From Stegostoma tigrinum (taxonomy: Eukaryota), in the NCBI RefSeq assembly GCF_030684315.1, contig NC_081391.1:21288629-21352628 (forward strand): DNA of 64,000 nucleotides, in the 5' to 3' direction. The position numbers and the translations under genes are program-made. Below the pieces are notes generated by a model. The model made no database searches and was not told the DNA's origin. It worked only from the letters and a program-made list of their open reading frames with translations. Below are positions 1 to 55,661 of the stretch, one piece after another; the stretch's first letter is position 1, and every line of letters starts with the position of its first letter.

Positions 1-467
1 AGGTGGGTGATGGTGATAATGAGGCTGCTGACTGAGCTTTCTGGCTGTGTTCACGAACACATGTCCCTTCATTCAGTTGGACAGGGGCCTAACTGGTCTC
101 CACCTCCTGAACAATAGTGTTTCTAACCTGCAGAGCAGGGATGTCTAATGTCTATAGATAGCTCTCCACTTCATCAGGCACCATGCCACATGTACTGTCT
201 CTCTTTCTCGCTCACACAGGCCAGGGATTGCATTTGCTTTTTGTCCTTGATTTCCAGAAAGCTGGTGAAATATCTGCACAAAGGCTGCTTTAGTATCTGT
301 TGTTTGGGTTATAATCCATGGAAGGTGACTTCCTGCTTTGTCTGTTTTTTTACCACTTAAATGTGGAATCAAGATGGTGCCCAGGTTATTTCCTGAGTGA
401 GGAGTGTCATTCACGAATTTCAGACAGTTTCCTTTTAACCTCTCTCCCTCCCTCCCTCCCTCCACAG

Positions 468-1646
<1,179 letters not shown>

Positions 1647-3731
1647 GTGAGGTCAATAATGTGTCTGTTGTACATGGTGACATAATGCTAGTAACTTGGT
1701 TGTGCTCTGAGCAAATTAAAATAGTGTTCACCATGGAACTGAGTACTTTGTATAATTTCACAGCTGCTTCTGGCTCTTGGTATTGCTGTTTGACACCTGA
1801 TCATTAATTCCTTTTCTGTTCTGATTAACCTTTGATTCAATGCCTGCCCCAGTCGTCTGCTCCTTTTCTCTTCACTTGTTTGTAGGAATTAGGTGGGCAA
1901 TCCTTGCAGTGGAAATTCCACAAGTGTTCAATTTGGGTTTTTGGCTAGTAAGCAGTGTTGTATTGACTTTTTTATTCCAAACCAGCTTCTAGTCAATATC
2001 TTCAGTGAAACCAGCCCCCTGTCTCAATGTTAGACACTGCCCTTGGCAATGTTCAAGTCTCTTTTGTAAATAAGCAGGGGCAGGAAATAGCAGGTTTGGG
2101 GAGCATCTGTGGAGAGAACTGTTCTCAGTCCCAGGACCCAAGATACAGTCACATCTCGTGACAGATGTTGCCAGACCTGTGAGGCTTTCCAGCAATTTTT
2201 TTGTCGCACTTCAAATCTAGCAATTTGAGCATACTTTCACTCTTTTGAACAGGAATATATAGTGGAACATCCAGCATCTAAGATGCACTGATCTTTAGCA
2301 CTTTAGATAAGCAATTGTTTCCAGAGCTGGGAAATAGTTTACTCTCTTTTGCTGCAGTGGGGGAAGGAGTAAGGGCACTGCCTGATTGTAGGAGAATGGC
2401 AAAATTTGTTTTCTCGTGTATCAGTCTTTCTGCTTCTAGACAATGATCCTCATTATGTAATGCAGCAGTGCCCACCTTGGAGCCCCTGTGGTAGAACTTC
2501 TATCATTGCTCTGCAATGTAGAGATGCCAAAGGCTCAGGACACCTAGTAAAAATAAAGCTAGAATGCAAATGCCACTAGCAGAAAGCAGCAGTTTGTGTG
2601 CTTAGCAAGGAAATAAGCTCTCCTGATCTACGCTGACCGGCATGTACCTCCACCTGCAATGTGCTATGGCTGCCTAATTACTGGTGCTCAGGGGTGACAG
2701 TTTCCTTTATTTAAAGGATGAGGATGTCTCTGAGCTGACACCATTTATTTATCCATTGCTCATTGTCCCCAAGGCCAGGTCAGAGTCACACACGTGGCTG
2801 TGGTTGCAGCGTCATACGCAGGCCAGGTAAGGATGGGTTTTTGACACTGAATATAATGCTCCTCATCAGCTTCTTAATTCTAGAACTCCAGAGAGTTGTC
2901 GCACAGAATTAGGAGATCATTCCACCACTCCAGAAACTTGATGGCTCTAGCAGCCACTAGATGCATTCTTTGCACCACTGACACACACGGAGTACACTGT
3001 GTACCGCCTCCCAAAAGCTGGAGAAATCCACCAAAGCTCCTGAGAATACTTTCCAAAGCCCTAATTACTTGCCATGGGAGAAAGGCATCTGATACAGGGG
3101 AAAACCACCCCCTCTAAGTTCTCCATCAAGCTACCTGCCATCCTGAGTTGGAAACACAACACCCCATTCTCCAGTGTCGGTGGATCAGAATCCTGGAATT
3201 CCCTCACTAGGAACATTGTGGATCTGACTACAGCAATTAAAGAAGGAAAGCCACCCCATTCTCTCATGGTGGGTGTGATCTCCGAGCGGGTCAAATACCT
3301 CTGGCTGGGCCGCCTTTTGTGAAATTGTCAAGTTCTAGCTCAACTCCATCTCGAGTGCATGGTTCTAGTAGGTTCAATCCAAAGATGCTTATGCACAGAA
3401 TTTCTGGAATGAACCTGGGCAGAAAGTTAATTGGCTACGATGATAATCGTTTTCCCAAGTCCCTCGATGTAGAAGTGGACGGGATGTCTGTGCTTGGAAT
3501 TTACAAGTGGATTCATGGATTTGACAGGGTAGATAGAGAGATCCTGCTTCTTTTCAATTCACATCCAGGACTGAGAGGGGGGAATATGATTACATTCCTA
3601 GCAGTAGAAGTAAATCATCCATGATAAAGCAAAAAACAGCTGCTTTTTGGAAAGGATAATATGTGAATGAGCAGTTAGATATTTATTCGGTAAGATGTTG
3701 ATGTTGCCAATCACTTTCCCATTGGAACATA

Positions 3732-4907
3732 TGACCAAACAGGTAGATGAGAGTAAACCGGTTGATGTGGTGTATATGCATTTCGGCAAGGCGTTCGATT
3801 AGGCTCCCCACAGTAGGCTATTGTACAAAATGCGGAGGAATGGGATTGTGGGAGATATAGCAGTTTGGATCAGAAATTGGCTTGCTGAAAGAAGACAGGG
3901 TGGTGGTTGATGGGAAATGTTCATCCTGGAGACCGGTTACTCGCGGTGTACCGCAAGGGTCCGTGTTGGGTCCACTGCTGTTTGTCATTTTTATAAACGT
4001 AGAAGGATGGGTTAGTAAATTTGCAGATGACACTAAGGTCGGTGGAGATGTGGGTAGTGACGAAGAATGTTGTAGGTTACAGAGAGACGTGGATAAGTTG
4101 CAGAGCTGGGCTGAGAGGTGGCAAATGGAGGTTAATGCCGACAAGTGTGAGGTGATGCACTTTGGTAGGAGGAACCGGAAGGCAAAGTACTGTAAGATTC
4201 TTGGTAGTGTAGATGAGCAGCGAGATCTCGGTGACCATGTACACAGATCCTTGAAAGTTGCCACCCAGGTTGACAGGGTTGTTAAGAAGGCATACAGTGT
4301 TTTAGCTTTTATGAATACAGGGATCGTGTTCCGGAACCAAGAGGTTATGCTGCAGCTGTACAAAACTCTTGTGCGGCCGCACTTGTAGCATTGCGTACAG
4401 TTCTGGTCACCGCATTATAAGAAGGATGTGGAAGTTTTGGAAAGGGTGCAGAGGAGGTTTACTGGGATGTTGCCTGGTATGGAGGGAAAGTCTTACGAGC
4501 AAAGGCTGAGGGACTTGAGGCTGTTTTCGTTAGAGAAAAGAAGGTTGAGAGGTGACTTAATTGAGACATCTAAGATAATCAAAGGGTTAGACAGGTTGGA
4601 TAGGGAGAGCCTTTTTCCCAAGACGGAGACAGCGAGCACGAGGGGCATAGCTTTAAATTGAGGGGTGAAAGATATACGACAGATGTCAGAGGTAGTTTCT
4701 TTACTCAGAGAATAGCAAGGGTGTGGAACGTTTTGCCTGCAACGGTAGGAGATTCACCAACGTTAAGTACGTTTAAGTTGTCATTGGACAAGCATATGGA
4801 CGTACATGGAATAGTGTAGGTTAGATGAGCTTCAGATCGGTATGACAGGTCGGCACAACGTCAAGGGCCGAAGGGCCTGTACTGTGCTGTCATGTTCTCT
4901 GTTCTAT
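3732..4907 (+). mobile_element. 5'-truncated CR1 LINE (RT C-terminal half plus 3' tail)
   Basis: GVPQGSVLGP and KFADDTK motifs; GTTCTAT-type tail; TSD AACATA at 3726-3731 and 4908-4913. Confidence 0.92.
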
Positions 4908-4929
4908 AACATAAAAGATGAATGCATTT

Positions 4930-5452
4930 AAGATTATTTTCATTAGAAGGGTGATGGGGTCGGGGGGGAACCTGACTGAGGTCAACAAAATCATGAGAAC
5001 TATAGACAAGGTGAATAGCAAGAAGCTTTTTCCCAGAGTCGGGGATTCAATGACTCGGAGTCATGAGTTCAAAATAAGAGCAAAGTTTAGAGGGGATTTG
5101 GTTAGATTGCCTACAGTGTGGAAACAGGCCCTTTTAGCCAAAAATGTCCACACTGGCCCTTGAAGCATCCCACCAAAACCCCCCACACTTCTGAACGCTA
5201 CGGGCAATTTATCATGTGGATGTGTGGCAAGCTCTTTACGCAGAGGTTGGAGGGTGCCTGGCACACTTTGCCTGTGGAGGTGGTAGACGAAGTCACGCAA
5301 GTGTCTTTTTAAGATGTATCAGGACAGGTACATGGATGGGCAGGGAGCAAAGGGATACTGACCCTAGAAAAGAGATGACAGACTTACACAGGATCTCGAT
5401 CGGTGCAGGCTTGGAGGGCCGAAGGGCCTGTTCCTGTGCTGTGATTTTCTTT
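4930..5452 (+). mobile_element. Decayed CR1 3' fragment with a nested repeat piece; remnant of F-type intron 1
   Basis: Matches the part of gene F intron 1 from ~37450 to 37985; ends in a GGCCGAAGGGCCTGTTCCTGTGCTGT tail. Confidence 0.6.
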
Positions 5453-5559
5453 GTTCTTAAATGTGGAGTCAAGATAGTGACCAGGTTAGTTTCTGATTGA
5501 GGAGTGCCATTGATTAACATCAGATATGTTTCCCTTTCCTGCCTTTCTCTTCCCCACGG

Positions 5560-6770
<1,211 letters not shown>

Positions 6771-8716
6771 ATGGGGTCAATATCTATATCTGTTGTACAA
6801 GGTGACCTCATTCTACTAAATGACTAGTTGTGCTCTGAGCAAATTAAAATAGTGTTCACCATGGAACTGAGCACAGTGTGTAATTTTCATAGCTTCTGGT
6901 TCTTGGAGCTTTTTGTGTTTTAATGTCTGATCATCAATCCTTTGTTCTTTGTGACAAGCTTTTGATTCAATGCCTGCCCCAGTACCTTGATCAGTGTTTG
7001 ATTCTGCTGTATCTGGGGATTGAGTGGGCAATCCTTTAATTGGAAATTCCATAACTGGTAAGGTTGTTGACAGATAAATCAGCATTACTGACATGTACTC
7101 ACAGGGACAAGTTTGCAGGACCAGCTTCTAATCAATACACTGACTGAAATCATTCCTTTGCCTAAAGGGTAGGCACTGATCTAATGCACTGCCCTTGGCC
7201 ATGTGTTTGCATCTCTTTTAAATAAGGAGATTCTGGAAACCAGGAACACAACCTGCTGGGAAATCTCAGGTTGGGCAGCATTGGTAGGGAGAAGGGTTGA
7301 ACAGAACCTGGACATGAGACACTCAATCATCTCTTGATTGACTTTGTTGCCTGACAGTGAGGTGTTTTCCAGCAATTTGTTCTCATGCCTAGATGTTAGT
7401 GATTTTAGTAGTTTGTAAAATTCCTCCTTACAAGACTAAGATACAATGCTTTTCCACAGTCTCTTTTTTTCTTTGACATAAGCAATTGCTCATGTCATTG
7501 TTCCCAGAGCTAGGGAATTAGTTTCTTCAGTATTTCCTTTATACATGTAGGAGAAGGAAAAATCTACCTTCTCTTAGAATGCTAACGTCTAGGAACGGCC
7601 ATGCGAATGAAGCGGTGCCCACCTCGTTCCCTGTGTGATAATTTCTATTATTACCCTGCAACGAAGAGGTGACAAATACTGAGGATGCCTGGTGGAAAAT
7701 CAAGCTAAAATACAAATACCATGTGCAGAATCGGCAGTTCCAATTTTTACGTTTATTAATCTTCAGCAGGAGAGCTGATCTGGCTGACCTGTGACTCCAA
7801 ACAGTGCACTGTGGTGGCCTAATCACTATCAATCAGCCCTGAATTACAATGTGACTGGTTTGTGTAAGTGCTTTAACAGGATCAGGCTATCACTGACAGG
7901 CAGCATTTATTATCCATCTCTGATTACCCACCCAGCCCATGAGTAATTCAAATTAAACCCCTTTGCTCTGCCTGTGGCGTTACGCAAAGGCCCGATCAGG
8001 TAAGGATGGCAGTTTCTTACGAACAAGGACATTAGTGAACCAGAAGAGGCTTGTTTGGACCATCTCTTCTGGAAAGAGAATGATGTGCATGAAATTCTGT
8101 CAAGTCAGACAGTATCAGGATTACAGGTGTCAGTCTAACACTCCAGAATGTTGACAGCCTCCAGCAAACGAGCAGCCACTTTCGTCTATCCTTCCACCAC
8201 TGACATACGCAGAGACTGCAATATATACCATCTACCAAATGCTGTAGGAATCCACCAAAGCTCCTCAGACAACTTCTTAAAACCGTAACTACTTTCCATC
8301 GGACAAGGGCAGATGATATGTGGGAACTTTTTGAGTGCGAGCAGCAGCGGAGGCAAGACGGACCCGGAAGACTGCAGCTAAGGTAAAGCAGTTTATTTTT
8401 AAAATTACTTACCGGTAGCGGGCAGCGGTGTTTTTTTTTGCTCTTTCAGAGAAGGAGCGGGAGCATCAGAGGAAGTGACGAGGACCAGAGGGGCAGCCGG
8501 GAAGGAAAGCAGTGACCATATATATCAGCAAGGCAGCTAAACCCGAGACTCTACAACTGTAGTGTCACCCACCCGCCCTCCTCCTCTAACCTAGTTAATA
8601 AGGTAAGGTTCATTCTAAACTTTCTCTATTGAACATAAGTTTGTTATTAATTTGTTATTATTACTTGAAGTGAGCTTTCTGCTTTAGTACTGAGTGGGTG
8701 TTCAGATAAGTGGGGT

Positions 8717-9652
8717 ATGGATGCTAGGGCAGTTGCTTGCTCCTCCTGCAAAATGTGGCAGTTGGGAGATGTGGCACACGTCTCCGCTGGCTACATCTGC
8801 GGGAAGTGCACCCAGCTACAGCTCCTTGAAAACCGTGTTAGGGAAATGGAGCTGGAGCTGGATGAACTACGGATCATTCGGGAGGCAGAGGGGGTAATTG
8901 AGAGGAGTTATCGGGAGTTGGTCACTCCTAAGGCTCAGGACGAGGATAGATGGGTTACAGTTAGGGGGAGGAAAGGGGACAGACAGACAGTGCAGAGATC
9001 CCCTGTGGGCATTCCCCTCAGCAATAAGTATACCGTTTTGGATACTGCTGGGGGGGTTGACCTACCAGAGGAAAGCCATAGTAGTCAGTTCTCTGGCACT
9101 GAGCCTGACACTGTGGCAAAGAAGGGAAGGGGGCAGAATAGAAAAGTACTCGTGGTAGGGGACTCGATAGTTAGGGGAATCGACAGGAGATTTTGTGGGC
9201 AAGATCGGGATTCCCGGAAGGTATGTTGCCTCCCTGGTGCCAGGGTCCGGGACGTCTCCGATCGGGTGTATAAAGTTCTGAAAGGGGAGGGTGAACAGCC
9301 AGAAATCGTGTTACATATTGGCACAAATGATATAGCCAGAAATAGGTTTGAGGATATAAAAAGTGATTTCAGGGAGTTAGGATGGAAGCTGCAGAGCAGG
9401 ACGAACAGAGTAGTGTTCTCTGGTTTACTACCGGTGCCACGAGATAGCGAGGTGAGGAACAGGGAGCGGGCGCAGCTGAACACGTGGCTACGCAGCTGGT
9501 GTAGGAGGGAGGGTTTCAGATATGTTGATAATTGGGATGCCTTCTGGGGAAGGTGGGACCTGTACAAGAAGGACGGGTTGCATCTGAACTGGAAGGGGAC
9601 CAATGTCCTGGGTGGAAGGTTTGCTCGAGTAGTTCGAGAGGGTTTAAACTAG
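8717..9652 (+). CDS. CR1 ORF1p (311 aa): zinc finger, coiled coil and SGNH esterase domain
   Basis: CSSC...CGKC; heptad-like LQLLENRVREMELELDELR; SGNH blocks VVGDS, PGA, HIGTND, DGLH. Confidence 0.93.
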   Translation: MDARAVACSSCKMWQLGDVAHVSAGYICGKCTQLQLLENRVREMELELDELRIIREAEGVIERSYRELVTPKAQDEDRWVTVRGRKGDRQTVQRSPVGIPLSNKYTVLDTAGGVDLPEESHSSQFSGTEPDTVAKKGRGQNRKVLVVGDSIVRGIDRRFCGQDRDSRKVCCLPGARVRDVSDRVYKVLKGEGEQPEIVLHIGTNDIARNRFEDIKSDFRELGWKLQSRTNRVVFSGLLPVPRDSEVRNRERAQLNTWLRSWCRREGFRYVDNWDAFWGRWDLYKKDGLHLNWKGTNVLGGRFARVVREGLN

Positions 9653-12542
9653 TATGGCAGGGGGGTGGGAACCTGAGCTGTATACCAGAGGTGAGCGTTG
9701 ATGCAGGTGAGGCAGTAGCAAGAGGTAGACCAGCTAGTGGGAAGGATTTTCCTGGGAAGGAACCAAGGGATCGGTTAAAGTGTGTTTGCTTTAATGCAAG
9801 GAGTATCAGGAATAAAAGTGATGAACTTAGAGCATGGATCAGTACCTGGTGCTATGATGTTGTGGCCATAACAGAGACATGGGTTTCTCATGGGCTGGAA
9901 TGGTTGCTGGATATTCCAGGGTTTAGAACATTTAAAAAGAATAGGGAGGGGGGAAAAAGAGGAGGGGGTGTAGCACTACTAATCAGAGAGGGTATCACAG
10001 CTACAGAAGCTTCCATTGTCGAGGAAGATCTGCCTACTGAGTCAGTATGGGTGGAAATTAGGAACAGCAAGGGAGTAGTCACCTCGTTAGGGGTTTACTA
10101 CAGGCCCCCCAATAGCAGCAGGGAGATTGTAGAAAGCATAGGTCGACAGATTTTGGAAAAGTGTGCACGCAGTAGGGTTGTTGTAATGGGTGACTTTAAC
10201 TTTCCTAATATTGATTGGAACCTCCTTCGAGCAGAAGGATTTGAATGGAGCTGTTTTTGTAAGGTGTGTTCAGGAGGGTTTCCTAACGCAGTACGTTGAC
10301 AGGCCGACGAGGGGAGAGGCCATTCTAGACTTGGTGCTCGGAAACGAGCCGGGGCAGGTATCAGATCTTGTGGTGGGAGAGCATTTTGGTGATAGTGACC
10401 ATAACACTCTCTCATTCTACATAGCTATGGAGAAGGAGAGGATTAGGCAGAATGGGAGGATATTTAATTGGGGAAGAGGAAACTATGATGCGATTAGACA
10501 CGAGTTAGGAAGCATGGACTGGGAGCAGTTGTTCCATGGTAAGGGAACTATAGACATGTGGAGATGGTTTAAGGAACAGTTGTTGGGAGTGATGAGTAAA
10601 TATGTCCCTCTGAGACAGGCAAGACGGGGTAAGATAAAGGAACCTTGGATGACGAGAGCGGTGGAGCTTCTAGTGAAAAGGAAGAAGGTAGCTTACATAA
10701 GGTGGAGGAAGCTAGGGTCAAGTTCAGCTAGAGAGGATTACATGCAGGCAAGGAAGGAGCTCAAAAATGGTCTGAGGAGAGCCAGGAGGGGGCACGAGAA
10801 AGGCTTGGCAGAAGGAATCCGGGAAAACACAAAGGCATTTTACACTTACGTGAGGAATAAGAGAATGGTCAAAGAAAGAGTAGGGCCGATCAGGGATAGC
10901 ATAGGGAACTTGTGTGTGGAGCCTGAGGAGGTAGGGGAAGCCCTAAATGAGTTTTTTGCTTCTGTCTTTACGAAAGAAACGACCTGTGTAGTGAATGAAA
11001 CCTTTTGAAGAGCAGGTGTGCATGCTGGAATGGATAGAGATAGAGGAAGCTGATGTACTGAAAATTTTGTCAAACATTAAGATTGACAAGTCGCCAGGCC
11101 CGGATCAGATTTGTCCTCGGCTGCTTTGGGAAGCGAGAAATGCAATTGCTTCGCCACTTGCGAAGATCTTTGCATCCTCGCTCTCCACTGGAGTCGTACC
11201 TGAGGACTGGAGAGAGGCAAATGTAATTCCTCTCTTCAAGAAAGGAAATAGGGAAATCCCCGGCAATTATAGACCGGTAAGTCTCACGTCTGTCGTCTGC
11301 AAGGTGTTAGAAAGGATTCTGAGGGATAAGATTTATGACCATCTGGAAGAGCATGGCTTGATCAAATACAGTCAACACGGCTTTGTGAGGGGTAGGTCAT
11401 GCCTTACAAACCTTATCGAGTTTTTTGAGGATGTGACTAGTAAGGTTGATGAGGGTCAAGCTGTGGATGTGGTGTATATGGACTTCAGTAAGGCATTTGA
11501 TAAGGTTCCCCATGGAAGGCTCATTCAGAAGGTCAGGAGGAATGGGATACAGGGGAACTTAGCTGCTTGGATACAGAATTGGCTGGCCAACAGAAGACAG
11601 CGAGTGGTAGTAGAAGGAAAATATTCTGCCTGGAAGTCAGTGGTGAGTGGGGTTCCACAGGGCTCTGTCCTTGGGCCTCTACTGTTTGTAATTTTTATTA
11701 ATGACTTGGACGAGGGAATTGAAGGATGGGTCAGCAAGTTTGCAGACGACACAAAGGTCGGAGGTGTCGTTGACAGTGTAGAGGGCTGTTGTAGGCTGCA
11801 GCGGGACATTGACAGGATGCAGAGATGGGCTGAGAGGTGGCAGATGGAGTTCAACCTGGATAAATGCGAGGTGATGCATTTTGGAAGGTCGAATTTGAAA
11901 ACTGAGTACAGGATTAAGGATAGGATTCTTGGCAGCGTGGAGGAACAGAGGGATCTTGGTGTGCAGATACATAGATCCCTTAAAATGGCCACCCAAGTGG
12001 ACAGGGTTGTTAAGAAAGCATATGGTGTTTTGGCTTTCATTAACAGGGGGATTGAGTTTAAGAGTCGTGAGATCTTGTTGCAGCTCTATAAAACTTTGGT
12101 TAGACCGCACTTGGAATACTGCGTCCAGTTCTGGGCGCCCTATGATAGGAAAGATGTGGATGCTTTGGAGAGGGTTCAGAGGAGGTTTACCAGGATGCTG
12201 CCTGGACTGGAGGGCTTATCTTACGAAGAGAGGTTGACTGAGCTCGGTCTCTTTTCATTGGAGAAAAGGAGGAGGAGAGGGGACCTAATTGAGGTATACA
12301 AGATAATGAGAGGCATAGATAGAGTCGATAGCCACAGACTATTTCCCAGGGCAGAAATGGCTAGCACGAGGGGTCATAGTTTTAAGCTGGTTGGTGGAAA
12401 GTATAGAGGGGATGTCAGAGGCAGGTTCTTTACGCAGAGAGTTGTGAGAGCATGGAATGCGTTGCCAGCAGCAGTTGTGGAAGCAAGGTCATTGGGGTCA
12501 TTTAAGAGACTGCTGGACATGCATATGGTCACAGAAATTTGA
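9643..12542 (+). CDS. CR1 ORF2p (APE endonuclease plus reverse transcriptase), interrupted by two apparent +1 T insertions (10240-10242, 11003-11006)
   Basis: FNARS, AITETW, GGGVALL, YRPP, MGDFN, SDHN endonuclease motifs; NYRPVSLTS, QHGF, DFSKAFD, PQGS, FADD RT motifs across three frames. Confidence 0.92.
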
Positions 12543-13299
12543 GGGTGCATCCATGAGGATCAATGGTCGGCACAACATTGTGGGCTGAAGGGCCTGTTCT
12601 GTGCTGTACTGTTCTATGTTCTATGTTCTAACACCACGTTCTACACCAAACCACCGATCAGCTGGTGTTGGAAACATCGCTCCCAGGTTCCCTCCCGAAC
12701 AGCAGTATGGGTTTGATTACACCAAATGGGCAACAGTAATGCAAGAAGGCAAGTCACCACATTCTCTAAACTAATGTTGGCCCTGATCTCTGAGGGGTTC
12801 AAATACCTCTGGATGAAGAGGTTTTGGTGAAATGGTCAAGTTCCTGTTCAACCATAGCTGGAGTGCACAGTTCTGGCAGGTTCGACCCAAAGATGGTTAT
12901 GCACGGAATTTCTGGAAGTAACCTGGACAGAGAGATGGTTAATTCATGATAACGGCTTGTCTAGTCCCTCTGTGTCGGAAGTTAAGGGATGGCTGCAATT
13001 GATAATTTTCAGAGGATTAATGGATTTGACAGGGTAGAGAGGAAAGAACCCATTTCTTCTCAATGATCATCTCGGACTGTGCGCAGAATGGGATGACAAT
13101 CTTCACATTAGAATTACATCATCCAGGATAATATCAAAAACAATTTCTTTGTGGAAAGGACAATATCTGCACACACAGATATTTACTGCACAAGGTTTGA
13201 TGTTGCCAATCACTTTCCAATTTCAACAAAAAAAAGTGAGTAATGCATTTTTGTCGAAGAAACACAAAGTCAAAACAGGCTCGATGTTACAAATCTGAT

Positions 13300-13990
13300 G
13301 TGAGTACAGGAGCTCAGCGACTTTCAGTTTCAAGTATGTGATTATCTGAAAGTGGTCAGGCAGGATGAAGCTGTTATTAATGGAGATTGAGCCACTTTTG
13401 TGAACCTTGTGTTTTCAAATTGAGGCATCGAGTATAAAAGCAACGAATTGATGTTACACCTCTACAAATCATTGGTTAGACCACATTTCCATTATGTACT
13501 CAGTTCTGGGCGTGACATTCAAGGAAGGATGTGAAAAACCTCAAAAGTGTTCAAAGGTGATTTATTACAATGACCCCAGGAATGGGGAATTTTAGATACA
13601 CGGAAAGATTAAGGAAAATGGGGGAAATCTCCTTGTAGGTGACCTTATTGACGTGATCAAAACTATGATCAATTTTGTCAGAGTAAAGCAGGATATTCTG
13701 ATTTCAGCAGTTGACTTGTCAGTGACGAGGGGTCACAGTTTGTCAGTAGGGGAGATCAGAGTGAAATGGTTAGAAAACTCTTTGCTCAGAAAGTTGTTCG
13801 GATTTGGAATGTGCTGCCTGGGAGAGTGACGGAGGTCGATTCCATGGTTGGTTTCAGAACAAGAGTTGGATATGTCGTTGGAAGTGACGAATTTAGAGAG
13901 TGACAGAGATAGGGCTGGAAAGTGAGACTAATCAGGTAGCTCTTTCAGAAGCTATTACAGGAACGGTGGGCTGAACGGCCTCCTGTTGTG
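13300..13990 (+). mobile_element. Ancient decayed CR1 3' remnant repeated in the spacers (also ~21050-21750, 28200-28790, 34860-35570, 41520-42240, 53460-54165, 60060-60350)
   Basis: Degenerate CTCTACAAATCATTGGTTAGACCACA...CAGTTCTGG (LYKSLVRPH...QFW) and GGGCTGAACGGCCTCC tail; boundaries approximate. Confidence 0.6.
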
Positions 13991-14639
13991 AAAAACGCTC
14001 TGAATTTCCACTCAGGAAATTCTGAGAGTTTGGGGACGGGGTTTGAATTCCACCTGTACAAGGCACCTTTAATGTGGGAAAGCTGTTACACGCCAGCAGA
14101 GACATGGTCCTTTACACAAGGTAGACCCAGTTCCACTGGCAAAGAAATGTTGACTGGGGATCCCCCCACTGCTGACCAACACCCACTGTCACAGCCAACG
14201 ATCGCACACACCTATCTTCCACCTGGATGGCCGCTGGGGACTGGTTTTGCATTGCACTTTATCAGGACCCTCCCCTCGATCGTACCATCCTGGGTGGCCC
14301 TGCCAGGAGGTGAAATCCTCTTCACTTATCACTCTGAGAACCAACAGAACACTCGAGGCTTTCCATCACTGCGAGGTGACAATCCACGGGCAGGAGCTGG
14401 AGGCAGGGAGATTCTGCTCAGGTACAGACCCACCACAGAATCGGAGAATTGTTATGGCACAGCAGGAGGCCATTCGGTCCTTTGTGCCTGTACCTGTTCT
14501 GGTTGTTTTCTAAATCTGCCTGTAGAGATGATTTAAGATCTCTGGATCTGGTAGGAACTTGTACCAAGGCCTCCTGGTCCACAGCTAGGGACATGACCCC
14601 TTAACCACAAGACCCTGGCTGCGCTAGTTGCACAAACGT

Positions 14640-14960
14640 GGAATCATAGAAAATAAATGTTGAGTCGGCCATTCATCCCTTCCAGCCTGCTCTGCCATTC
14701 CATGTGATTGTGGCTGATTCCATAACTCAGCACCATATTCTCACCCTCTCTGCATTCCCTTTTGATCCAGCCCTCAAAGCTCTCCCCAATTCCTGTTTTG
14801 GCTTCAATCCTTTTCTGTGGCAGAGAATTCCACAGGATCCACCACCCCGCCCCCCGAGGTGAAGAGATTTCTCCTCACCTCAGTTCTAAATGTATCCTTA
14901 GACTGCAAACCCTGGTCCTGAACTCCCCCATAATCAGGAACATCCTTCCTGTCTTTTCCA
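14640..14960 (-). mobile_element. Old minus-strand CR1-type 3' fragment in Y-type spacers (also ~29450-29780, 42895-43215, 54820-55140)
   Basis: Reverse complement gives ...LFTSGVVNLWNSLPQK-like sequence and an ATGAATGGCCGACTC...TTCTATGATTC tail. Confidence 0.55.
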
Positions 14961-15220
14961 CAGCTGACACTGTTACAATTTTCTATGATCCAGAGACAAT
15001 TTCCCAACTTTCTTTCCCAAATCCCAGCATAACAAGCTGAGAAACTGATGCCCCTCTTCCTCATTGAATCCCTCGTGCAGTTGCTCACAACCACCTTAAT
15101 TAAAAAAAATGTGAAAACTTTTCTCAAACCAAATTGACTTATTTTAAAAAAGAACCAAATGACCCATGACCTGATTGAGTGGTGCAGAAGGTTTGAGATG
15201 CCGAATGGCCTCCTGCTGTT

Positions 15221-15413
15221 CCAATCACAGAATAACCATCCAGACCTGGCTCTCATCTCCACCTCTGATCAGCTCTGCTTAACACACCCTCCCCCTCTCT
15301 CTCATTGGTGCCTGTTTGCAGGGGTGGTTCCTGATTGGCCACCAGCAACTGTCAGTCATCATCAGTTCTGCCTCTCTCTGTGTGACTGCAGGATGGTCCC
15401 AGGACTATAAATA
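15221..15413 (+). promoter_or_regulatory. Ferritin C promoter
   Basis: CCAAT 15221, inverted CCAAT (ATTGG) 15304 and 15334, TATAAATA 15406-15413, 77 nt before ATG. Confidence 0.75.
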
Positions 15414-15482
15414 CAAGAGCCTGTGGGAGAGAGAGACTTAGTTCTAGAGTTTTCTTGGTGCTTGTGAGCAGGAATAGTGAAG

Positions 15483-17758
15483 ATGGTTTCCCAAGTGTGT
15501 CAGAACTACCACCAGGACTGTGAGGATGCTGTTAACAAGCAGATCAACCTGGAGCTCTATTCCTCCTATGTTTACCTCTCCATGGTGAGCTTTGTGGAAT
15601 TGAAGCCTGTGCTATGATAGTGTTGACCTGTTTGGTTTTTATGCTGGGTTAATGAATTAGCTGTAACATGTATTATTTTCTGTGGCCCTTCCCCTGTTGT
15701 AATCTAGTGCAGGTCTTATCACTGACTCTCTGTTCAAAACTTGATCACTGTCTTCATGTCCAACTGGCTCCTGGATGTGGATGCCCAGCTTGCTGTCTCT
15801 GGACAATGTAACCCTTGGTGATTTTTTTCATCTAACTCTGGAGGGATGATCTGGTCTTGGTCAATAATTAATTTTTGTAAAACTTTGGTTGTATTCCTTT
15901 TCTCAACAAAAGCTTTTCCTGACACAAATATACTCCTTTTTTAAAACCTTGCCCTATTCACCGGACTGTCTTGTGCTCAAGATGTCAAGTTCCCTGAACT
16001 AAAAGAACAGCTGCTGCTAGACATTAAACACTAACAAAAATAGCTAGAAAAGCTCTACAGAGCTGGAAGAAATCCAAGCTCTGGGTCCATTGACCCTTTC
16101 TCAGAAGTGGCTTTGAGCTATGCAATGTGAGGAAAGGGGCACATTTTCAGACTATGTACGTGTTTTTTTTTCTTTCTCTCTCTAACAAAGCAGTTAAAAT
16201 TCTGTGGAGTGGGTGGTAGGACACTGCGGTTATTCAGGTGGGTGATAGTGATAATGAGACTGCTGACTGAGCTTTCTGGTTGTGTTAATGAACACATGTC
16301 CCTTCATTCAGTTGGACAGGGGCCGAACTGGTCTCCACCTCCTGAACAATAGTGTTTCTAACCTGCAGAGCAGGGATGTCTAATGGCTCTAGACAGCTCT
16401 CCCCTTCATCATCCATGGAAGGTGACTTCCTGCTTTGTCTGTTTTTTTAACCACTTAAATGTGGAATCCAGATGGTGCCCAGGTTAGTTCCAGAGTGAGG
16501 AGTGTCATTCATGAATTTCAGACAGTTTCCTTTTAGCCTCTCTTCCCACAGTTCTCTTACTTTGACCGGGATGATGTTGCCCTGCATCACTTTGCTGAGT
16601 TCTTCAAGGAGCAGTCCCATGAGGAACGGGAACACGCTGAGAAACTGATGGCATTCCAGAATAAACGTGGAGGTCGAGTCCTCCTGCAGGACATTAAGGT
16701 TAGATTCTGAAGCCTTCTGTTTGCAGCTTTTTGTGAGCAGCTACAATCGACTGGTATCTCCATCTATTTAGCTTTAGCCTTGAACAAATACTGTGTGAAG
16801 GGGAGGGTGTTCACCAAAATAGGATTCCTTTAGGTTGAAAGGAAATACTCTGCACTTATGAGGGCAATTGAGAGGAACCAGAATAGTGAGTAGATATCAA
16901 TGTGAATGACTCTCCTTCAGACAGAATGAGGTAACAAAAGCTAAGACAGGAAATTGTTGCACTGTGGAAAGTAGCAGTGTCCAGCCTTTCTGAATCTGGA
17001 AGATGTTTCTAACACCACAATAGTGAAGCCAGGAACTACTTCCATTGGTACCTATTCTCTACATGTGAATTCTGAGAATCTACATTAACAGTAGAATGTG
17101 TTTAGAAAATTTGTTATTCCCTCAGTACAAAATCTAGTTGTTGTCTTCAAATTAAAGTTGGTTTGCAGTACCTCCCCTACAATGATGAGGGATAACTAAC
17201 TGATCAGATGTAGACTGATGATACAACTGCCTGCTGAACTGTGCTTTCTGTTCCTGCTTCCCTCCCTCCAGAAGCCAGAGCAGGATGAGTGGGGCAGTGG
17301 TCTGGAGGCAATGCAGAGAGCTCTGCAGATGGAGAAGGATGTGAACCAGAGTCTGCTGGATCTGCACAAACTCGCCTCTGGCCACACTGACCCTCATGTG
17401 AGTTTGTAAATTTTCTTCTTGGAAGAAAGTGGTGTGTTTGTGCACTCTCTGGGTAAAAATCCAATTACCTTCTCCCAGCCTCCTGCAGGCTGTTAAAACA
17501 AACTTACAAATGCATCACCTCAGTGGACCTCCACCTGGTTGTGATGGTCACATCTGTCATGGGGGTCACTTTCAGACACTTTTGATCCTCTGGATTAATT
17601 TTCTCTTCCAGCTGTGTGACTTCCTGGAGAGGCAATACTTGGATGAGCAAGTGAAGATGATCAAGAAGCTGGGAGATCACATCACCAACCTGAAGAGACT
17701 GGGAGCCCCTGACAATGGCATGGGAGAGTACCTGTTTGACAGGCTCACACTCGGCTGA
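15483..17758 (+). CDS. Ferritin unit C, intact 173 aa. Exons 15483-15584, 16552-16698, 17272-17397, 17612-17758
   Basis: [34 protein letters not shown]...DRLTLG*; canonical splice sites; ATTAAA polyA signal at 17827. Confidence 0.95.
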
Positions 17759-19833
17759 ATGGGGTCAATAATGTGTATGTTGTACATGGTGACATAATGC
17801 TAGTAACTTGGTTGTGCTCTGAGCAAATTAAAATAGTGTTCACCATGCAACTGAGTACTTTGCATAATTTCACAGCTGCTTCTGGCTCTTGGTATTGCTG
17901 TTTGACACCTGATCATGAAGTGTTTTTCTGTTCTGATTAACCTTTGATTCAATGCCTGCCCCACTGGCTTGCTCCTTTTCTCTTGTTTGTAGGAATTAGG
18001 TGGGCAATCCTTGTAGTGGAAATTCCACAAGTGTTCAGTTTGGGTTTTTTTGGCTAGTAAGCAGTGTTGTATTGACTTCTTTATTCCAAACCAGCTTCTG
18101 GTCAATATCTTCAGTGAAACCAGCCCCCTGTCTCAATGTTAGACACTGCCCTTGCAAATGTTTAGGTCTCTTTTGTAAATCAGCAGGGGCAGGAAATAGC
18201 AAGTTTGGGGAGCATCTGTGGAGAGAAAACTGTTCAGTCCCAGGACCCAAGCTTTCCAGCAATTTTGTTGTCGCACTTCAAATCTAATGATTTGAGCATA
18301 CATTCACTCTTTTTGGAACAGGAATATATATAGCAGAACATCCAGCATTTCAGATGCACTGATCTTTAGCATTTAGATAAGCAATTGTGTCCAGATCTGG
18401 GAAATTGGTTTCCCTCTTTTGCTGCGGTGGTGGAAGGAGTGAGGGCAGTGGCTGTTTGTAGGAGAATGGCAAAGTTTATTTTCTTGTGTATCAGTCTCTC
18501 TGCTTCTAGACAATGATCCTGATTACGTAATGAAGCAGTCCCCACCTTCGAGCCCCTGTGCTAGAACTTCATCACTTCTCTGCAGTCTAAGGACGCCAAA
18601 TGCTCATGACACCAGGAGAAAATAAAGCTCGAACCCAAATGCCACTGGCAGAAAGCAGCAGTTCCTATTCTTAGCAAGGAAATAAGCTCTCCTGATGTAG
18701 ATTGACTGACTGGAATGTACCTACACCTGCAGAGCACTCTGGCTGCCGAATTACTGATGCTCAGGGGTGACAGATTCCTTTATAAAAAGGATGAGGATGT
18801 CTCTGAGCTGACACCATTTATCCATTTCCGATTGCCCCCCGCCAAAGCCAGGTCAGAGTGTCACGCTTTGCTGTGGTTGCAGTGTCATATGCAGGCCAGA
18901 CTAAGTAAGGATGCATTTTTGACACTGAATTTAATGCTACTCATCAGTTTCTTAATTCTAGAACTCCAGAGAGTTGTTGCACAGAATTAGAAGATCAGTC
19001 CACCACTCCAGAAATGTGATGGCCTCCCGCTCCCACCAGCCACGAGATTCATTCTTTGCACCACTGACACACACAGAGTACACTGTGTACTGCCTCCCAA
19101 AAGCTGCAGAAATCCACCATCGCTCCTGAGACAATACTTTCCATAGCCCTAATTACGTGCCATGGGAGAAAAGCATCTCATACAGGGGAACACCACCCCC
19201 TCTAACTACTCCACCAAGCGACATGCCATCCTGAGTTGGAAACGTGACCCGCCATGCTCCAGGGTCGGTGGATCAGAATCCTGGAATTCCCTCACTCGGA
19301 ACATTATGGATCTGACGACAGCAAATAGGCAACAGCAATTCAAGAAGGAAAGCCACCACATTCTCTCATGGTGAGCCTGATCTCAGACCGGGTCCAATAC
19401 CTCGGGATGGGCCTTCTTTTGTGAAATTGTCAAGTCCTAGTTCAACCCCATCTGGAGTGCACTGTTCCAGTAGGTTCAATCCAAAGATGCTTATGCACAG
19501 AATTTCTGGAATGAACCTGGGCAGAAAGTTAATTGGCTACGATGATAATAGTTTTCCCAAGTCTCTCGGTGTAGAAGTGGAAGGGATGTCTGTGCTTGAA
19601 ATTTACAAGTGGATTCATGGATTTGATAGGGTAGATAGAGAGATCCTGCTTCTTTTCAATTCCATTCCAGGACCGAGAGTGGGGAATATGATTACATTCC
19701 TAGTAGTAGAAGTAAATCATCCATGATAAAGCAAAAAACAGCTGCTTTTTGGAAAGGATAATATGTGAATGAGCAGTTAGATATTTATTCGGTAGGATAT
19801 TGATGTTGCCAATCACTTTCCCATTGCAACATA

Positions 19834-20995
19834 TGACCAAACAGGTAGATGAGAGAAAACCGGTTGATGTGGTGTATATGGATTTCGGCAAGGCTTTCGA
19901 TTAGGCTATTGTACAAAATACGGAGGAATGGGATTGTGGGAGATATAGCAGTTTGGATCAGAAATTGGCTTGCTGAAAGAAGACAGCGTGGTGGTTGATG
20001 GGAAATGTTCATCCTAGAGACCGGTTACTCGCGGTGTACCGCAAGGGTCGGTGCTGGGTCCACTGCTGTTTGTCATTTTTATAAACGTAGAAGGATGGGT
20101 TAGTAAATTTGCAGACGACACGAAGGTCGGTGGAGATGTGGATAGTGACGAAGAATGTTGTAGGTTACAGAGAGACGTAGATAAGTTGCAGAGCTGGGCT
20201 GAGAGGTGGCAAACGGAGGTTAATGCGGACAAGTGTGAGGTGTTGTACTTTGGTAGGAGGAACCGGAAGGCAAAGTACTGTAAGATTCTTGGTAGTGTAG
20301 ATGAGCAGAGAGATCTCGGTGACCATGTACACAGATCCTTGAAAGTTGCCACCCAGGTTGACAGGGTTGTTAAGAAGGCATACAGTGTTTTAGCTTTTAT
20401 GAATCCAGGGATCATGTTCCGGAACCAAGAGGTTATGCTGCAGCTGTACAAAACTCTGGTGCGGCCGCACTTGGAGCATTGCGTACAATTCTGGTCACCG
20501 CATTATAAGAAGGATGTGGAAGTTTTGGAAAGGGTGCAGAGGAGGTTTACTAGGATGTTGCCTGGTATGGAGGGAAAGTCTTACGAGGAAAGGCTGAGGG
20601 ACTTGAGGCTGTTCTCGTTAGAGAGAAGAAGGTTGAGAGGTGACTTAATTGAGACATATAAGATAATCAAAGGGTTAGACAGGTTGGATAGGGAGAGCCT
20701 TTTCCCTAGGACGGAAACGGCGAGCACGAGGGGGCATAGCTTTAAATTGAGGGGTGAAAGATATAGGACAGATGTCAGAGGTAGTTGCTTTACTCAGAGA
20801 ATAGGAAGGGTATGGAACGCTTTGCCTACAACGGTCGTAGATTCACCAACTTTAAGTACATTTAAGTCGTCATTGGACAAGCATATGGACGTACGTGGAA
20901 TAGTGTTGGTTAGATGAGCTTCAGATCGGTATGACAGGTCGGCACAACGTCAGGGCCGAAGGGCCTGTACTGTGCTGTAATGTTCTATGTTCTAT
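19834..20995 (+). mobile_element. 5'-truncated CR1 LINE, same insertion event as 3732-4907
   Basis: RT ORF 20051-20917; TSD AACATA; same truncation point and internal deletions. Confidence 0.93.
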
Positions 20996-27001: not shown

Positions 27002-28191
27002 AAGCATGTGGATGAGGGAAGGGCAGTTGACGTGGTGTACATGGACTTCAGTAAAGCCTTTGATAAGGTTCCACATCGTAGGCTATTGGAGAAAATACAG
27101 AGGCACAGGATTGAGGGAGATTTAGCAGTTTGGATTAGAAACTGGCTTTCTGTAAGAAGGCAACGAGTGGTGGTTGATGGAAAATATCCAGCCTGGAGTC
27201 AGGTCACTGGTAGTGTGCCTCAAGGATCTGCTTTAGGACCACTGCTGTTTGTCATTTTTATAAATGACTTGGACGCAGGCATAGGTGGATGGGTTAGTAA
27301 GTTTGCAGATGACACTAAAGTCGGTGGAGTGGTGGACGGGGTGGAAGAATGTTGCACGTTGCAGGGAGACTTGGATAAACTGCAGAATTGGGCTGAAAGG
27401 TGGCAAATGGAGTTCAATGCAGATAAATGTGAGTTGATTCAATTTTGGGGGAATAACAGGAAGGCAGAATACCGGGTCAATGGAAAGATTCTTGGCAGTG
27501 TGGATGTGCAGATGGATCTTGGTGTCCATGTACATAGATCCCTGAAAGTTGTCACCCAGGTTGATAATGCTGATAAGAAGGCTTACCGTGTGTTAGGTTT
27601 TATTGGTAGAGCGATTGAGTTCCGGAGCCGTGATGTCATGCTGCAACTGTACAAAACGCTAGTGCGGCCTCATTTGGAATATTGCGTGCAGTTCTGGTCA
27701 CCCCATTACAGGAAGGATGTGGAAGCATTGGGAAAGGTGCAGAGGAGATTTACCAGGATGTTGCCTGGTCTGGAGCGCAGGCCCAATGAAGAAACGCTGA
27801 GGGACTTGGATCTGTTCTCATTGGAGAGAAGTAGGCTAAGAGGGGATTTAATAGAGACATACAAGATGATCAGAGGATTAGATAGGGTGGACAGTGAGAG
27901 TCTTTTTCCGAGGATGATGACTTCAACTTGTACAAGGGGGCATAGCTACAAATTGCGGGGTGATACATTTCAGACATTTGTCAGAGGCAGGTTCTTTGCT
28001 CAGAGAGTGGTAAGGGCGTGGAAAGCACTGCCTGCCAATGTAGTTAACTCAGCCACGTTAGGGGCATTTAAACAGTCCTTGGATAAGCATATGGATGGTG
28101 ACGGGATTGTGTAGGAGGTGGGGCTTGGATTAGCTCACAGGTCGGCGCAACATCGAGGGCCGAAGGGCCCGTTCTGCGCTGTATTGTTCTA
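27002..28191 (+). mobile_element. 5'-truncated CR1 LINE, independent insertion
   Basis: Uninterrupted 368-aa RT frame 27008-28114; TSD TGAACC 26996-27001 and 28192-28197; empty site TTGTGAACCTTGTG at ~13400. Confidence 0.93.
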
Positions 28192-30046
28192 TGAACCTTG
28201 TGTTTTCAAATTGAGGCATCGAGCATAAAAGCAAGGAATTGATGATACCCCTCTACAACTCATTGGTTAGACCACATTTGCAGTGATGTGCTCAGTTCTG
28301 GGCGTGGCTTTTAAGGAAGGGCATTCAAGCCCTGGACAGAGTTCAAAGGTGATTTATAATAATGACACCTGGAATGGGGAATTTCAGACACACGGAAAGA
28401 TTAAAGAAATAGCGCTTATTCTCCTTGGAGCAAGGAGCACTTGTTGAAGTGATCAAAATTATCACCAATTCTGTCAGGGTAAAGGGGGATATTCTGTTTT
28501 CACCAGTGGATACGTTAGTGACGAGGGGTCACAATTTGTCAGTGAGGGAGCTCACAGTGAGAGGAGGAGAAACCTCTTCACTCAGAAAGTTGGTAGGGTT
28601 TGGTATGCGTAGCTGACAGGAGTGATGGACGCAGATTCCGTAGGTGGCTTTAGCAAAGCAGCTGTATACATATATGGAAGTGGCAAATTTAGAGGGATAC
28701 AGACATAGGGCTGGAGAGTGGGGCTGGGTGTGGAATGCTTTCAGAAACTGAATCAGGCACGATGGGCCAAATGGCCTCCTATCATTAAAAATCCTCTGCA
28801 TGTTCCCCCAGGAAATTCTCAGAGTTTGGAGAGGGGCTTTGTACTCCTCTCAGTGGGCACCTGTACAAGGCACCTTTAATGTGGGAAAGCTGTTACACAT
28901 CAGCAGAGACATGGTCCTTTACACAAGGTAGACCCAGTTCCACTGGCAAAGAAATGTTGACTGGGGATCCCCCCACTGCTGACCTTCACCCACCGTCACA
29001 GCCAACGATAGCACACGCCTATCTTCCACCTGGATGGCCGTTGGGAACTTGTTTTGCATTGCACTTTACCAGGACCCTCCCCTCGATCGTACCGTCCTGG
29101 GTGGCCCTGCCAGGAGGTGAAATCCTCTTCAGGTATCACTCTCAGAACCAACAGAACACTCGAGGCTCTCCATCACTGCGAGGTGACAATCCACAGGCAG
29201 GAGCTGGAGGCAGGGAGATGCTGCTCAGGTACAGACCCATCACAGAATCGGAGAATTGTTGTGGCACAGCAGGCGGCCATTCGGTCCTTTGTGCCTGCAC
29301 CTGTTCTGGTTGTTTTCTAATTCTGCCTGTAGAGATGTTACAAAATCTCTGGATCTGGTATGGACTTGGACCAAGGCTTCCTGGTCCACAGCTAGGGACA
29401 TTACCCCTGAATCACAATACCCTGGCTGCACTGGTTGTACAAACTTAGAATCATCGAAAAAAAATTGTTGGATTCGGCCATTCAGCCCCCTCCAGACTGC
29501 TCTGCCATTCCATGTGATTGTGGCTGATTCCATAACTCAGTCCCATCTTCCCACTCTCTCTCCATACTCTTTGATCCCTTCAGCCCTCAAAGCTACACCC
29601 AACTGCTCCTGGAAAAAATTCAAAGTTTTGGCCTCAAATGTTTTCTGTGGCACAGAATTCCACAGGACCCCCACTCTCTCGGTGAAGAGATTTCTCCTCA
29701 TCTCAGTCCTAAATGTGTCCTTAGGCTGTGACCCCTGGTCCTAAACTTTTCCATCATCAGGAACATCCGTCCTGTCTTTTCCACAGCTGACACTATGACA
29801 ATTTTCGATGACCCCGAGCCAATTTCCCACCTTTCTTTCCCAAATCCCAGCACAACAGGCTGAGAAACTGACACTCCCCTTCCTCAATGAGTCCCTTCTG
29901 CAGTTGATCACAACCACCATAATTTAAAAACAAAACGAGCAATCTTTTCTCAAACCATATTTACTTCTTTTAAAAAAGAACCAAATGACCTCTGACCTGA
30001 TTGAGTGGTGCAGAAGGTTTGAGATGCCGAATGGCCTCCTGCTGTT

Positions 30047-42200: not shown

Positions 42201-43476
42201 CAGAAGCTAATACAGGAACGGTGGGCTGAACGGCCTCCTGTTGTGAAGAACGCTCTGAATTTCCACCCAGGAAATTCTGAGAGTTTGGGGACGGGGTTTT
42301 TAATTCCACCTGTAGAAGGCACCTTGAATGTGGGAAAGCTGTTACACATCAGCAGAGACATGGTCCTTTACACAAGGTAGACCCAGTTCCACAGGTAAAG
42401 AAATGTTGACTGGGGATCCCCCCACTGCTGGCCAACACCCACTGTCACAGCCAACGATCGCACACACCTATCTTCCACTTGGATGGCCGCTGGGAACTGG
42501 TTTTGCATTGCACCTTATCAGGACCCTCCCCTCGATCATACCGTCCAGGGTGGCCCTGCCAGGAGGTGAAATCCTCTTCACTTATCACTCTGAGAACCAA
42601 CAGAACACTCGAGGCTCTCCATCACTGCGAGGTGACAATCCACAGGCAGGAGCTGGAGGCAGGGAGATTCTGCTCAGGTACAGACCCACCACAGAATCGG
42701 AGAATTGTTATGGCACAGCAGGAGGCCATTCGGTCCTTTGTGCCTGTACCTGTTCTGGTTGTTTTCTAAATCTGCCTGTAGAGATGATTTAAGATCTCTG
42801 GATCTGGTAGGAACTTGTACCAAGGCCTCTTGGTCCAAAGCTAGGGACATTACCCCTAAACCACAAGACCCTGGCTGCACTGGTTGCACAAACATAGAAT
42901 CATAGAAAATAAATGTTGAGTCGGCCATTCATCCCTTCCAGCCTGCTCTGCCATTCCATGTGATTGTGGCTGATTCCATAACTCAGCACCATATTCTCAC
43001 CCTCTCTGCAATCCCTTTTGATCCAGCCCTCAAAGCTCTCCCCAATTCCTGTTTTGGCTTCAATCCTTTTCTGTGGCAGAGAATTCCACAGGTTCCACCA
43101 CCCCGCCCCCCGAGGTGAAGAGATTTCTCCTCCCCTCAGTCCTAAACGTATCCTTAGATTGCAAACCCTGGTCCTGGCCTCCCCTATAATCAGGAACATC
43201 CTTCCTGTCTTTTCCACAGCTGACACTGTTACAATTTTCTATGACCCAGAGCCAATTTCCCACCCTTCTTTCCCAAATCCCAGCACAACAAGCTGAGAAA
43301 CTGATGCCCCTCTTCCTCATTGAATCCCTCGTGCAGTTGCTCACAACCACCTTAATTTTTAAAAAATGTGTAACTTTTTTGAAACCAAATTGACTTCTTT
43401 TAGAAAAGAACCAAATGACCCATGACCTGATTGAGTGGTGCAGAAGGTTTGAGATGCCGAATGGCCTCCTGCTGTT

Positions 43477-43669: not shown

Positions 43670-43738
43670 CAAGAGCCTGTGGGAGCGAGAGACTTAGTTC
43701 TAGAGTTTTCTTGGTGCTTGTGAGCAGGAATAGTGAAG

Positions 43739-46129
<2,391 letters not shown>

Positions 46130-55592: not shown

Positions 55593-55661
55593 CAAGAGCC
55601 TGTGGGAGAGAGAGACTTAGTTCTAGAGTTTTCTTGGTGCTTGTGAGCAGGAATAGTGAAG

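Follow-up and report, generated by a model that had tools for sequence, protein, structure and literature searches.

Probable expression of ORF2 by -1 ribosomal frameshifting at a conserved U_UUA_AAC junction in vertebrate CR1 retrotransposons, as seen from a Stegostoma tigrinum copy

The window analysed here is a stretch of 64,000 nucleotides (nt) of Stegostoma tigrinum DNA (NCBI RefSeq assembly GCF_030684315.1, contig NC_081391.1, positions 21,288,629 to 21,352,628 of the forward strand), and all coordinates below refer to it. It contains a CR1 retrotransposon (8328..12629, + strand, 4302 bp), and the subject of this analysis is the junction between the two open reading frames (ORFs) of that element. 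The boundaries follow from self-comparison of the window and from an empty paralogous site near 52808. Since both flanks are matched in the paralogue (1-8327 by 44491-52808 at 98% and 12630-18140 by 52806-58343 at 95%), the latter represents the empty site, against which a 3-bp duplication, AAC, flanks the CR1 at 8325-8327 and 12630-12632. Given the empty site, this duplication and a TTCTATG-repeat 3' tail (12612..12629, +, defined by sequence and self-comparison), the copy is a full-length, young insertion. It has no long terminal repeats (LTRs), a short tandem-repeat tail and a short target duplication, as is usual for non-LTR elements. The accessible text of PMC13343379 describes canonical vertebrate CR1 as having an esterase ORF1, an ORF2 with APE endonuclease and reverse transcriptase (RT), and a short-repeat 3' tail, which is also the layout found here. 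The assignment to CR1 rather than L2 is probable, from an esterase tree and from the likeness by eye of the junction to the CR1-labelled rows accessible in that paper.

The 5' untranslated region (5' UTR; 8328..8716, +) extends from the 5' insertion junction to the ORF1 ATG at 8717. ORF1 (8717..9652, +, 311 amino acids, within the open frame 8669..9652) consists of an N-terminal CxxC..CxxC segment with conserved Cys, a segment that looks coiled-coil-like by eye, a C-terminal SGNH esterase and a final Leu-Asn-stop. Its residues 147-294 match Pfam Lipase_GDSL_2 (PF13472, E 1.4e-13), the esterase expected of CR1, and the protein is 99% identical to the predicted Stegostoma tigrinum protein LOC132207556; its profile matches PDB 4C1B with an E-value of 1.7e-42. 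ORF2 comprises the APE endonuclease and the region after it (9778..10999, +; Pfam Exo_endo_phos, PF03372, E 1.3e-13), followed by the RT to the stop codon (11000..12542, +; Pfam RVT_1, PF00078, E 2.1e-35). Both domains that CR1 ORF2 should have are thus present, although the frame is broken at two places, one between ~10223 and 10281 and one near 11000, according to tblastn frames against the intact homologues P0121 and P0124. The copy at 8328-12629 is therefore dead for ORF2 and cannot itself yield a full fusion of the two products.

According to the original prediction, which was made from the sequence of the window, a programmed -1 ribosomal frameshift probably joins ORF1 to ORF2. The sequence and ORF phase at the junction bear out its description: ORF1 ends with GAG GGT TTA AAC TAG, which holds two overlapping heptamers in the ORF1 phase. 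The slippery heptamer U_UUA_AAC (9643..9649, +) is formed by a preceding U and the last two ORF1 codons, G_GGU_UUA (9640..9646, +) overlaps it and is incidental, and the UAG stop (9650..9652, +) lies directly 3' of U_UUA_AAC. Canonical in-frame heptamers occur at 5 of the 1209 in-frame positions of the element's ORFs, two of the five being this pair, and TTTAAACTAG has a single occurrence in the 64 kb, both strands counted. The -1 frame (9532..10299, opening with TTG) is indeed the entry to ORF2, as predicted: it reads FKLVWQGGGN, reaches the endonuclease start CFNARS 48 residues after FKL, and stays open for 216 codons past U_UUA_AAC. The linker between slip site and endonuclease (9649..9777, +) is free of both stops and Met in this frame, and ahead of the first break the -1 frame contains a single ATG, at 10186 within VVMGDFN. 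In other words, an X_XXY_YYZ heptamer in zero-frame phase is followed by an ORF that lies in the -1 frame and is open from the site onwards. The predicted G-rich tract is present as well, in the form of an extra GG at 9656-57 and the G-run GGGGGGUGGG (9660..9669, +), a candidate 3' stimulator that begins 10 nt downstream of the heptamer. In the third frame, a short ORF of 14 codons (9654-9698) begins with an ATG at 9654, two bases past the ORF1 stop and out of frame; it is not conserved in the consensuses seen.

Conservation at the DNA level was examined in the accessible part of the consensus table of PMC13343379 (Supplementary Table 2), with junction matches sorted by eye and species taken from row abbreviations; the search covers the first 400 nt of each consensus, and the rows are related by descent. 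TTTAAACTA has 23 matches, 17 of which lie at CR1 ORF1 ends, in rows from chimaera, catshark, dogfish, sawfish, stingray, bowfin, teleost (under a Crack label), coelacanth, bullfrog, alligator and crocodile. TTTAAACTG has 7 matches, including one TGA junction (PogVit) and one stop-less junction (ScyCan_CR1-13). Because a direct search presupposes the motif, upstream and downstream anchors were also used. The search anchored on DGLHL (six DGL codon spellings) returned 18 matches with 8 CR1 ORF1 ends, and TTTAAAC-stop is present in all 7 that have the junction visible; the search anchored on the G-run (four spellings) returned 23 matches with 10 CR1 junctions, and TTTAAAC is present in 9 of the 9 with the site visible, the tenth row ending after the first two motif bases. 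Synonymous spellings of Leu-Asn-TAG (six of those possible) gave 14 matches in the table and none at a junction, and the same is true for A, C or G before TTAAACTA (10 matches). The conservation of U_UUA_AAC was thereby upheld, and the opposite pattern, a consensus with an AUG and without a conserved heptamer, was not encountered.

The surroundings of the heptamer are more variable. The stop after it may be TAG, TAA or TGA, and the codon before its TTA is GCT, GAT, TAT, TGT or GGT in different consensuses. The claim that G_GGU_UUA forms part of the signal was consequently dropped, as the bases before TTT vary; as a second slip site it is lineage-specific, being confined to Gly-Leu-Asn shark and ray lineages. 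With the element's own codon usage, the chance of finding T, TTA and AAC, given any residue followed by Leu-Asn, is 0.0096 per lineage; between ORF1 proteins of 30-40% identity, synonymous sites should already be saturated. Judged from these comparisons, the junction feature is genuine, and its conservation extends across the jawed vertebrates. Other collections added little: tblastn with the esterase found nothing in phages or plasmids, and the single bacterial match (L001) of a degenerate esterase pattern in genome contigs has in-frame stops and was rejected as chance. In sequences accompanying PMC4316615, all 4 FKL matches lie at the ORF2 3' end, which shows that coding sequence away from the junction can contain TTTAAACT strings too. 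As for the Crack label, the row AldAff_Crack-2 has a CR1-type esterase end with TTTAAAC-TAG, while PMC13343379, in its accessible text, reports vertebrate Crack elements as having no detected ORF1.

Protein comparisons generally agree with the DNA. Among the 120 ORF1 homologues listed of 146 matches, a Leu-Asn end is found in 84 of the 97 that reach the C-terminus, or in 85 of all 120; these homologues come, among others, from sharks, rays, Paramormyrops, Latimeria, frogs, turtles, lizards and a hummingbird and go down to ~31% identity. In the tree of 87 esterase domains, built with the tail excluded and with rows lacking a DGLHL match or having a tail >60 residues omitted, the vertebrate clade (support 99/96) has the Leu-Asn end in 35 of 36 rows, 8 of which were added by hand, and the ZfL2-like sister group has it in 0 of 7. 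The 150 best representatives of 50% clusters end with Leu-Asn in 62 cases and with Asn in 77 (background 0.3% and 3.7%, respectively), a ranking biased by profile A1, which was made from 42 hand-picked Leu-Asn-ending sequences. The residue before Leu-Asn takes 12 different values, and Leu-Asn is the most invariant C-terminal dipeptide. A T-ending codon is possible for this residue in 81 of 85 homologues; positions -6, -7 and -9 give equally low scores, and the measure therefore has no discriminating power.

A dipeptide so invariant and always at the free end might be a protein motif (a degron, a binding motif or a helix cap), with the heptamer as its by-product. We regard this explanation as highly improbable. 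A protein constraint cannot fix TTA, AAC and the preceding T (joint chance ~0.01), and none of the synonymous spellings searched occurs at a junction. In addition, the related solved ZfL2-1 esterase 4C1B (171 amino acids) has no Leu-Asn, its alignment ending at position 315 of the 319 in the profile, and the offset of Leu-Asn after DGLHL varies by lineage (25, 26, 27, 32 or 39 residues). Because of this variable distance and of the end of 4C1B before Leu-Asn, the dipeptide tracks the stop codon rather than the esterase fold or its helix, and the fold does not need it.

Gene models provide a further view of the junction. Those of Hypanus (P0037), Gopherus (P0114), Limosa (P0156) and Mycteria (P0231-P0237), as well as P0079, read FKL there in the -1 frame and continue toward or into ORF2, so that ray, tortoise, godwit and stork are among them. 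FKLxxxG is present in 11 of 11 junction-spanning proteins and FKLxxxGxG in 10 of 11; a twelfth FKLxxxG match, P0142, sits in the RT and is unrelated. Natural in-frame ORF1-ORF2 fusions were sought among 20 longer proteins, and the junction-spanning ones proved to be gene models that enter the -1 frame upstream, which do not speak for a real fusion. Shark-like CR1 ORF1 and ORF2 proteins also occur under bacterial annotation (P0008 and P0122; Pseudomonas aeruginosa and Carnobacterium maltaromaticum) on 3-4 kb contigs, and probably represent host DNA in bacterial assemblies.

Taken from sequence, the Leu-Asn-stop end, the fixed TTTAAAC and the -1-frame ORF2 in ray, tortoise and bird models support the proposed -1 frameshift at U_UUA_AAC, and we consider it likely that vertebrate esterase-type CR1 LINEs (long interspersed nuclear elements) express ORF2 by programmed -1 frameshifting as an esterase-endonuclease-RT fusion. 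In such a scheme most ribosomes would end at the ORF1 stop and release ORF1p, and a minority would slip one base back on U_UUA_AAC, where ORF1 has its last two codons, and pass a linker of 37-108 residues into the endonuclease and RT. The slip would be aided by a pause at the adjacent stop and by the G-run fixed 10 nt downstream, acting either as a protein-binding site or as a weak G-quadruplex. ORF1p and ORF2p would thereby be joined as in gag-pol, in a fusion that is produced at a low, fixed ratio and brings an ORF1 assembly domain of its own; it would probably stay uncut, because no protease domain is found among the Pfam matches of the element's ORFs. The length of ~1,270 amino acids given by the original prediction holds as arithmetic (311 plus ~964 codons), whereas no such ORF exists in this copy, in which ORF2 is broken twice.

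Several known systems resemble this arrangement. U_UUA_AAC is among the four shiftiest heptamers for mammalian ribosomes according to the accessible text of PMC5009743. Coronaviruses such as IBV (infectious bronchitis virus) and the gag-pol genes of retroviruses and LTR elements have, like CR1, the same heptamer in the same phase between a structural ORF and a -1-frame polymerase ORF (PMC5009743 and PMC11835228, accessible parts); in the latter, a chicken report, the frameshift mentions concern the gag-pol of ALV (avian leukosis virus). CR1 differs from coronavirus and retrovirus sites in being a non-LTR element without a protease domain, in the lack of any pseudoknot or stem-loop found, and in having the stop directly adjacent. 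Regarding non-LTR elements, frameshifting is reported in the same text of PMC5009743 as needed for Drosophila HeT-A; it occurs, however, within gag, and that element has neither an RT nor an ORF1-ORF2 fusion. SART1 and L1 are likewise non-LTR elements with adjacent ORFs, but they make a separate ORF2p, and in CR1 it is the heptamer that is conserved and not the AUG.

What weighs against frameshifting concerns the downstream stimulator, the possible starts of ORF2, exceptions at the stop and the limits of the samples. As for the first, none of four folded windows yields a significant stem-loop (z from -0.17 to 0.13, with pseudoknots outside the model). The CAGG/CCTG hairpin that had been proposed did not survive: the fold of 9650-9730 has -16.5 kcal/mol and a z of 0.13, with 110 of 200 shuffles as good. 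No Rfam element was found, two weak matches to long non-coding RNAs being far below the gathering score. Pairing over a long distance, between the G-tract and either ORF1 (9206) or the 5' UTR (8546), was also rejected, since the best duplexes (-30.0 and -26.8 kcal/mol) fall within the top 0.1-1% of background windows, that is, within background, and no conserved partner was found. Moreover, the G-run is shifted or missing in several gappy consensuses. Regarding the stop, it is not adjacent to the heptamer in ScyCan_CR1-13, and HypSab_CR1-13 shows none. To these points are added the limits given above with the counts: the 400-nt search range and related rows of the consensus table, the six synonymous spellings, the profile bias and the hand-added tree rows.

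GGGGG(A/G)(T/G)GGG starts 10 nt after the heptamer both in this copy (9660) and in 7 of the 10 G-run-anchored CR1 rows (two alligator, one crocodile, chimaera, sawfish and two catshark), the remaining three, which are visibly gappy consensuses, having spacers of 3, 8 and 9 nt. For a ribosome paused with the stop in its A site, the G-run lies 7 nt beyond that codon. With G-quadruplex energies switched on, a two-tier quadruplex is predicted at 9656-9668, 6 nt after the heptamer, in 2 of the 4 folded windows. The accessible text of PMC3919603 reports that a G-quadruplex after UUUAAAC stimulates -1 shifting up to ~7%, with 6-8 nt spacers working best; those quadruplexes, however, were engineered and three-tier, and fewer quartets gave less shifting, whereas the CR1 run is short and does not have four tracts in every family. 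Another comparison is the nsp2 shift of the virus of the porcine reproductive and respiratory syndrome (PRRSV), where, in the accessible text of PMC5009743, CCCANCUCC lies 11 nt downstream and is bound by nsp1beta and PCBP, against the 10-nt spacer of CR1. The likeness is one of spacing only, as the CR1 motif is G-rich and the viral one C-rich, and a trans-acting protein is known for PRRSV. Apart from a structured stimulator, the junction carries the sequence hallmarks of a -1 programmed frameshift site. Rather than a local hairpin, the stimulator is probably the pause at the adjacent stop combined with the G-run, as a protein-binding motif or a weak G-quadruplex. The G-run might also be kept in part for its Gly codons.

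The starts of ORF2 bear on termination-reinitiation, in which ribosomes would end at the ORF1 stop and restart in the -1 frame at UAAUG, at a downstream Met or independently of AUG, releasing free ORF2p, with the G-run as downstream helper. Precedents are SART1, which uses UAAUG and a downstream structure (PMC5972666), and L1, whose ORF2 relies on unconventional reinitiation (PMC3894237) that is AUG-independent (PMC5009743), according to the accessible text of these papers. In CR1 the stop is nearly always directly adjacent to the heptamer, and UAAUG in the ORF2 frame is found in ScyCan_CR1-1a, SquAca_CR1-17a and SquAca_CR1-6c, that is, in 3 of 18 stop-bearing junction rows. The predicted lack of an AUG before VVMGDFN holds for this copy and fails family-wide, as 8 of 10 spanning proteins have an in-frame Met between FKL and the endonuclease, although six of these eight belong to one stork family. 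Many predicted ORF2 proteins also begin at a linker Met, which gene callers require. Reinitiation, however, leaves the invariant, phase-locked U_UUA_AAC unexplained. At the place of restart the codon is variable (GTA in this copy and GGT, AGC, GTT, GTG, ATG, GAT and AGT in accessible consensuses), the linker Met positions (-90, -45, -27 and -13) are not conserved, and neither this copy nor P0156 has one. Here the stop is TAG followed by T instead of UAAUG, with the nearby ATG at 9654 outside the ORF2 frame. Overall, reinitiation as the general mode seems unlikely, and some CR1 families may use both it and frameshifting.

TTTAAAC, the stop and the G-run could also constitute some other nucleic-acid signal, for RNA packaging, processing or ORF1p binding, or one related to splicing of an ORF2 mRNA. 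The motif is conserved in DNA, a protein might be bound by the G-run, and the site reads as a palindrome, here GTTTAAAC. Yet the flanking base of the palindrome is not conserved in the accessible consensuses, and in all lineages checked the motif is locked to the ORF1 phase, to the stop and to the -1 relation with ORF2, which makes such a signal a very unlikely explanation.

Within the frameshifting interpretation, a more far-reaching version is tentative and, in our view, rather doubtful. Here -1 frameshifting would be ancestral for esterase-type CR1 and predate the cartilaginous/bony split, the stop would stand in or next to the A site while the G-run is bound by a trans-acting protein, possibly ORF1p in a feedback, and a retrovirus-like uncleaved ORF1-endonuclease-RT fusion would reside in the particle.

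A second ORF1 clade in the tree (44 rows), which counts in favour of the frameshift interpretation as a whole, ends with Leu-Asn in 13 rows, with Gly-Asn in 9 (8 of them QGN) and otherwise in 22. One of its proteins ends with SKN, Lys-Asn lies at an equal distance from DGLHL in four, and others end near FF or FL. Based on amino acids only, the ends LN, GN and KN suggest the signatures expected of U_UUA_AAC, G_GGA_AAC and A_AAA_AAC, respectively, which is a lead; GGGAAAC-stop has 3 matches in the accessible vertebrate consensus table, none of them at an ORF1 end. The esterase ORF1s P0299-P0378 of the second clade end with QGN, SKN, FFR or LN at varied distances, and look-alikes of this clade carry Eukaryota/Chordata labels only.

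No description of frameshifting for CR1 was found in the literature on CR1 and non-LTR frameshifting, a search outside of which lie older subscription papers (chicken and turtle CR1 of the 1990s, primary SART1 and L1 papers, Repbase reports). Overlapping ORFs have been noted for some non-LTR elements, and an earlier passing mention for CR1 is therefore possible. The main text of PMC13343379, as far as accessible, contains none of the words 'frameshift', 'overlap', 'translation' or 'slippery' and does not describe a junction signal, and the accessible text of PMC5009743 does not contain 'CR1', its non-LTR elements being HeT-A, TART and L1 only. How non-LTR elements translate their ORF2 is treated as unsettled in the accessible text of PMC3894237, and the established cases (L1 and SART1) are reinitiation. 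If CR1 does frameshift, it would employ a gag-pol-like strategy with a fixed ORF1p:ORF2p ratio and an RT tied to the ORF1 coiled coil and esterase, which is a simple route to co-assembly. CR1 ORF2 starts would then be mis-annotated at the first Met, the active enzyme having ~310 extra N-terminal residues, and the junction would be a U_UUA_AAC site that occurs naturally in chromosomes and whose stimulator, an adjacent stop plus a fixed-spacing G-run, is unusual. CR1 is described as dominating among the retrotransposons of most vertebrates (PMC13343379, accessible text), and under the ancestral version the dominant transposon of most non-mammalian vertebrates would build a retrovirus-like uncleaved fusion.

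As for the rest of the window, 1-64000 is a tandem array of multi-kilobase duplicated segments, another pair being 37449-44666 and 49413-56607 (91%), and the CR1 studied was inserted into one of the units once the latest duplication had taken place. Another CR1 family, ~70% identical to this element, is represented by four 5'-truncated pieces at 3741-4907, 19843-20995, 27008-28193 and 48222-49387; all begin at one RT position and lack the ORF1-ORF2 junction. Three of them have common flanks and are duplicates of a single insertion, and the one at 27008 differs from them in its flank but begins at nearly the same position. Finally, in the 5' UTR of the full-length element (8601-8690), AGGTAAG at 8601 resembles a splice donor and a pyrimidine tract at 8675-8687 ends with TAG; together they may delimit an intron of ~85 nt ahead of the ORF1 ATG. 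Donor-like GGTGAG or GGTAAG is also found in the 5' UTRs of shark CR1 consensuses in the accessible part of the PMC13343379 table.

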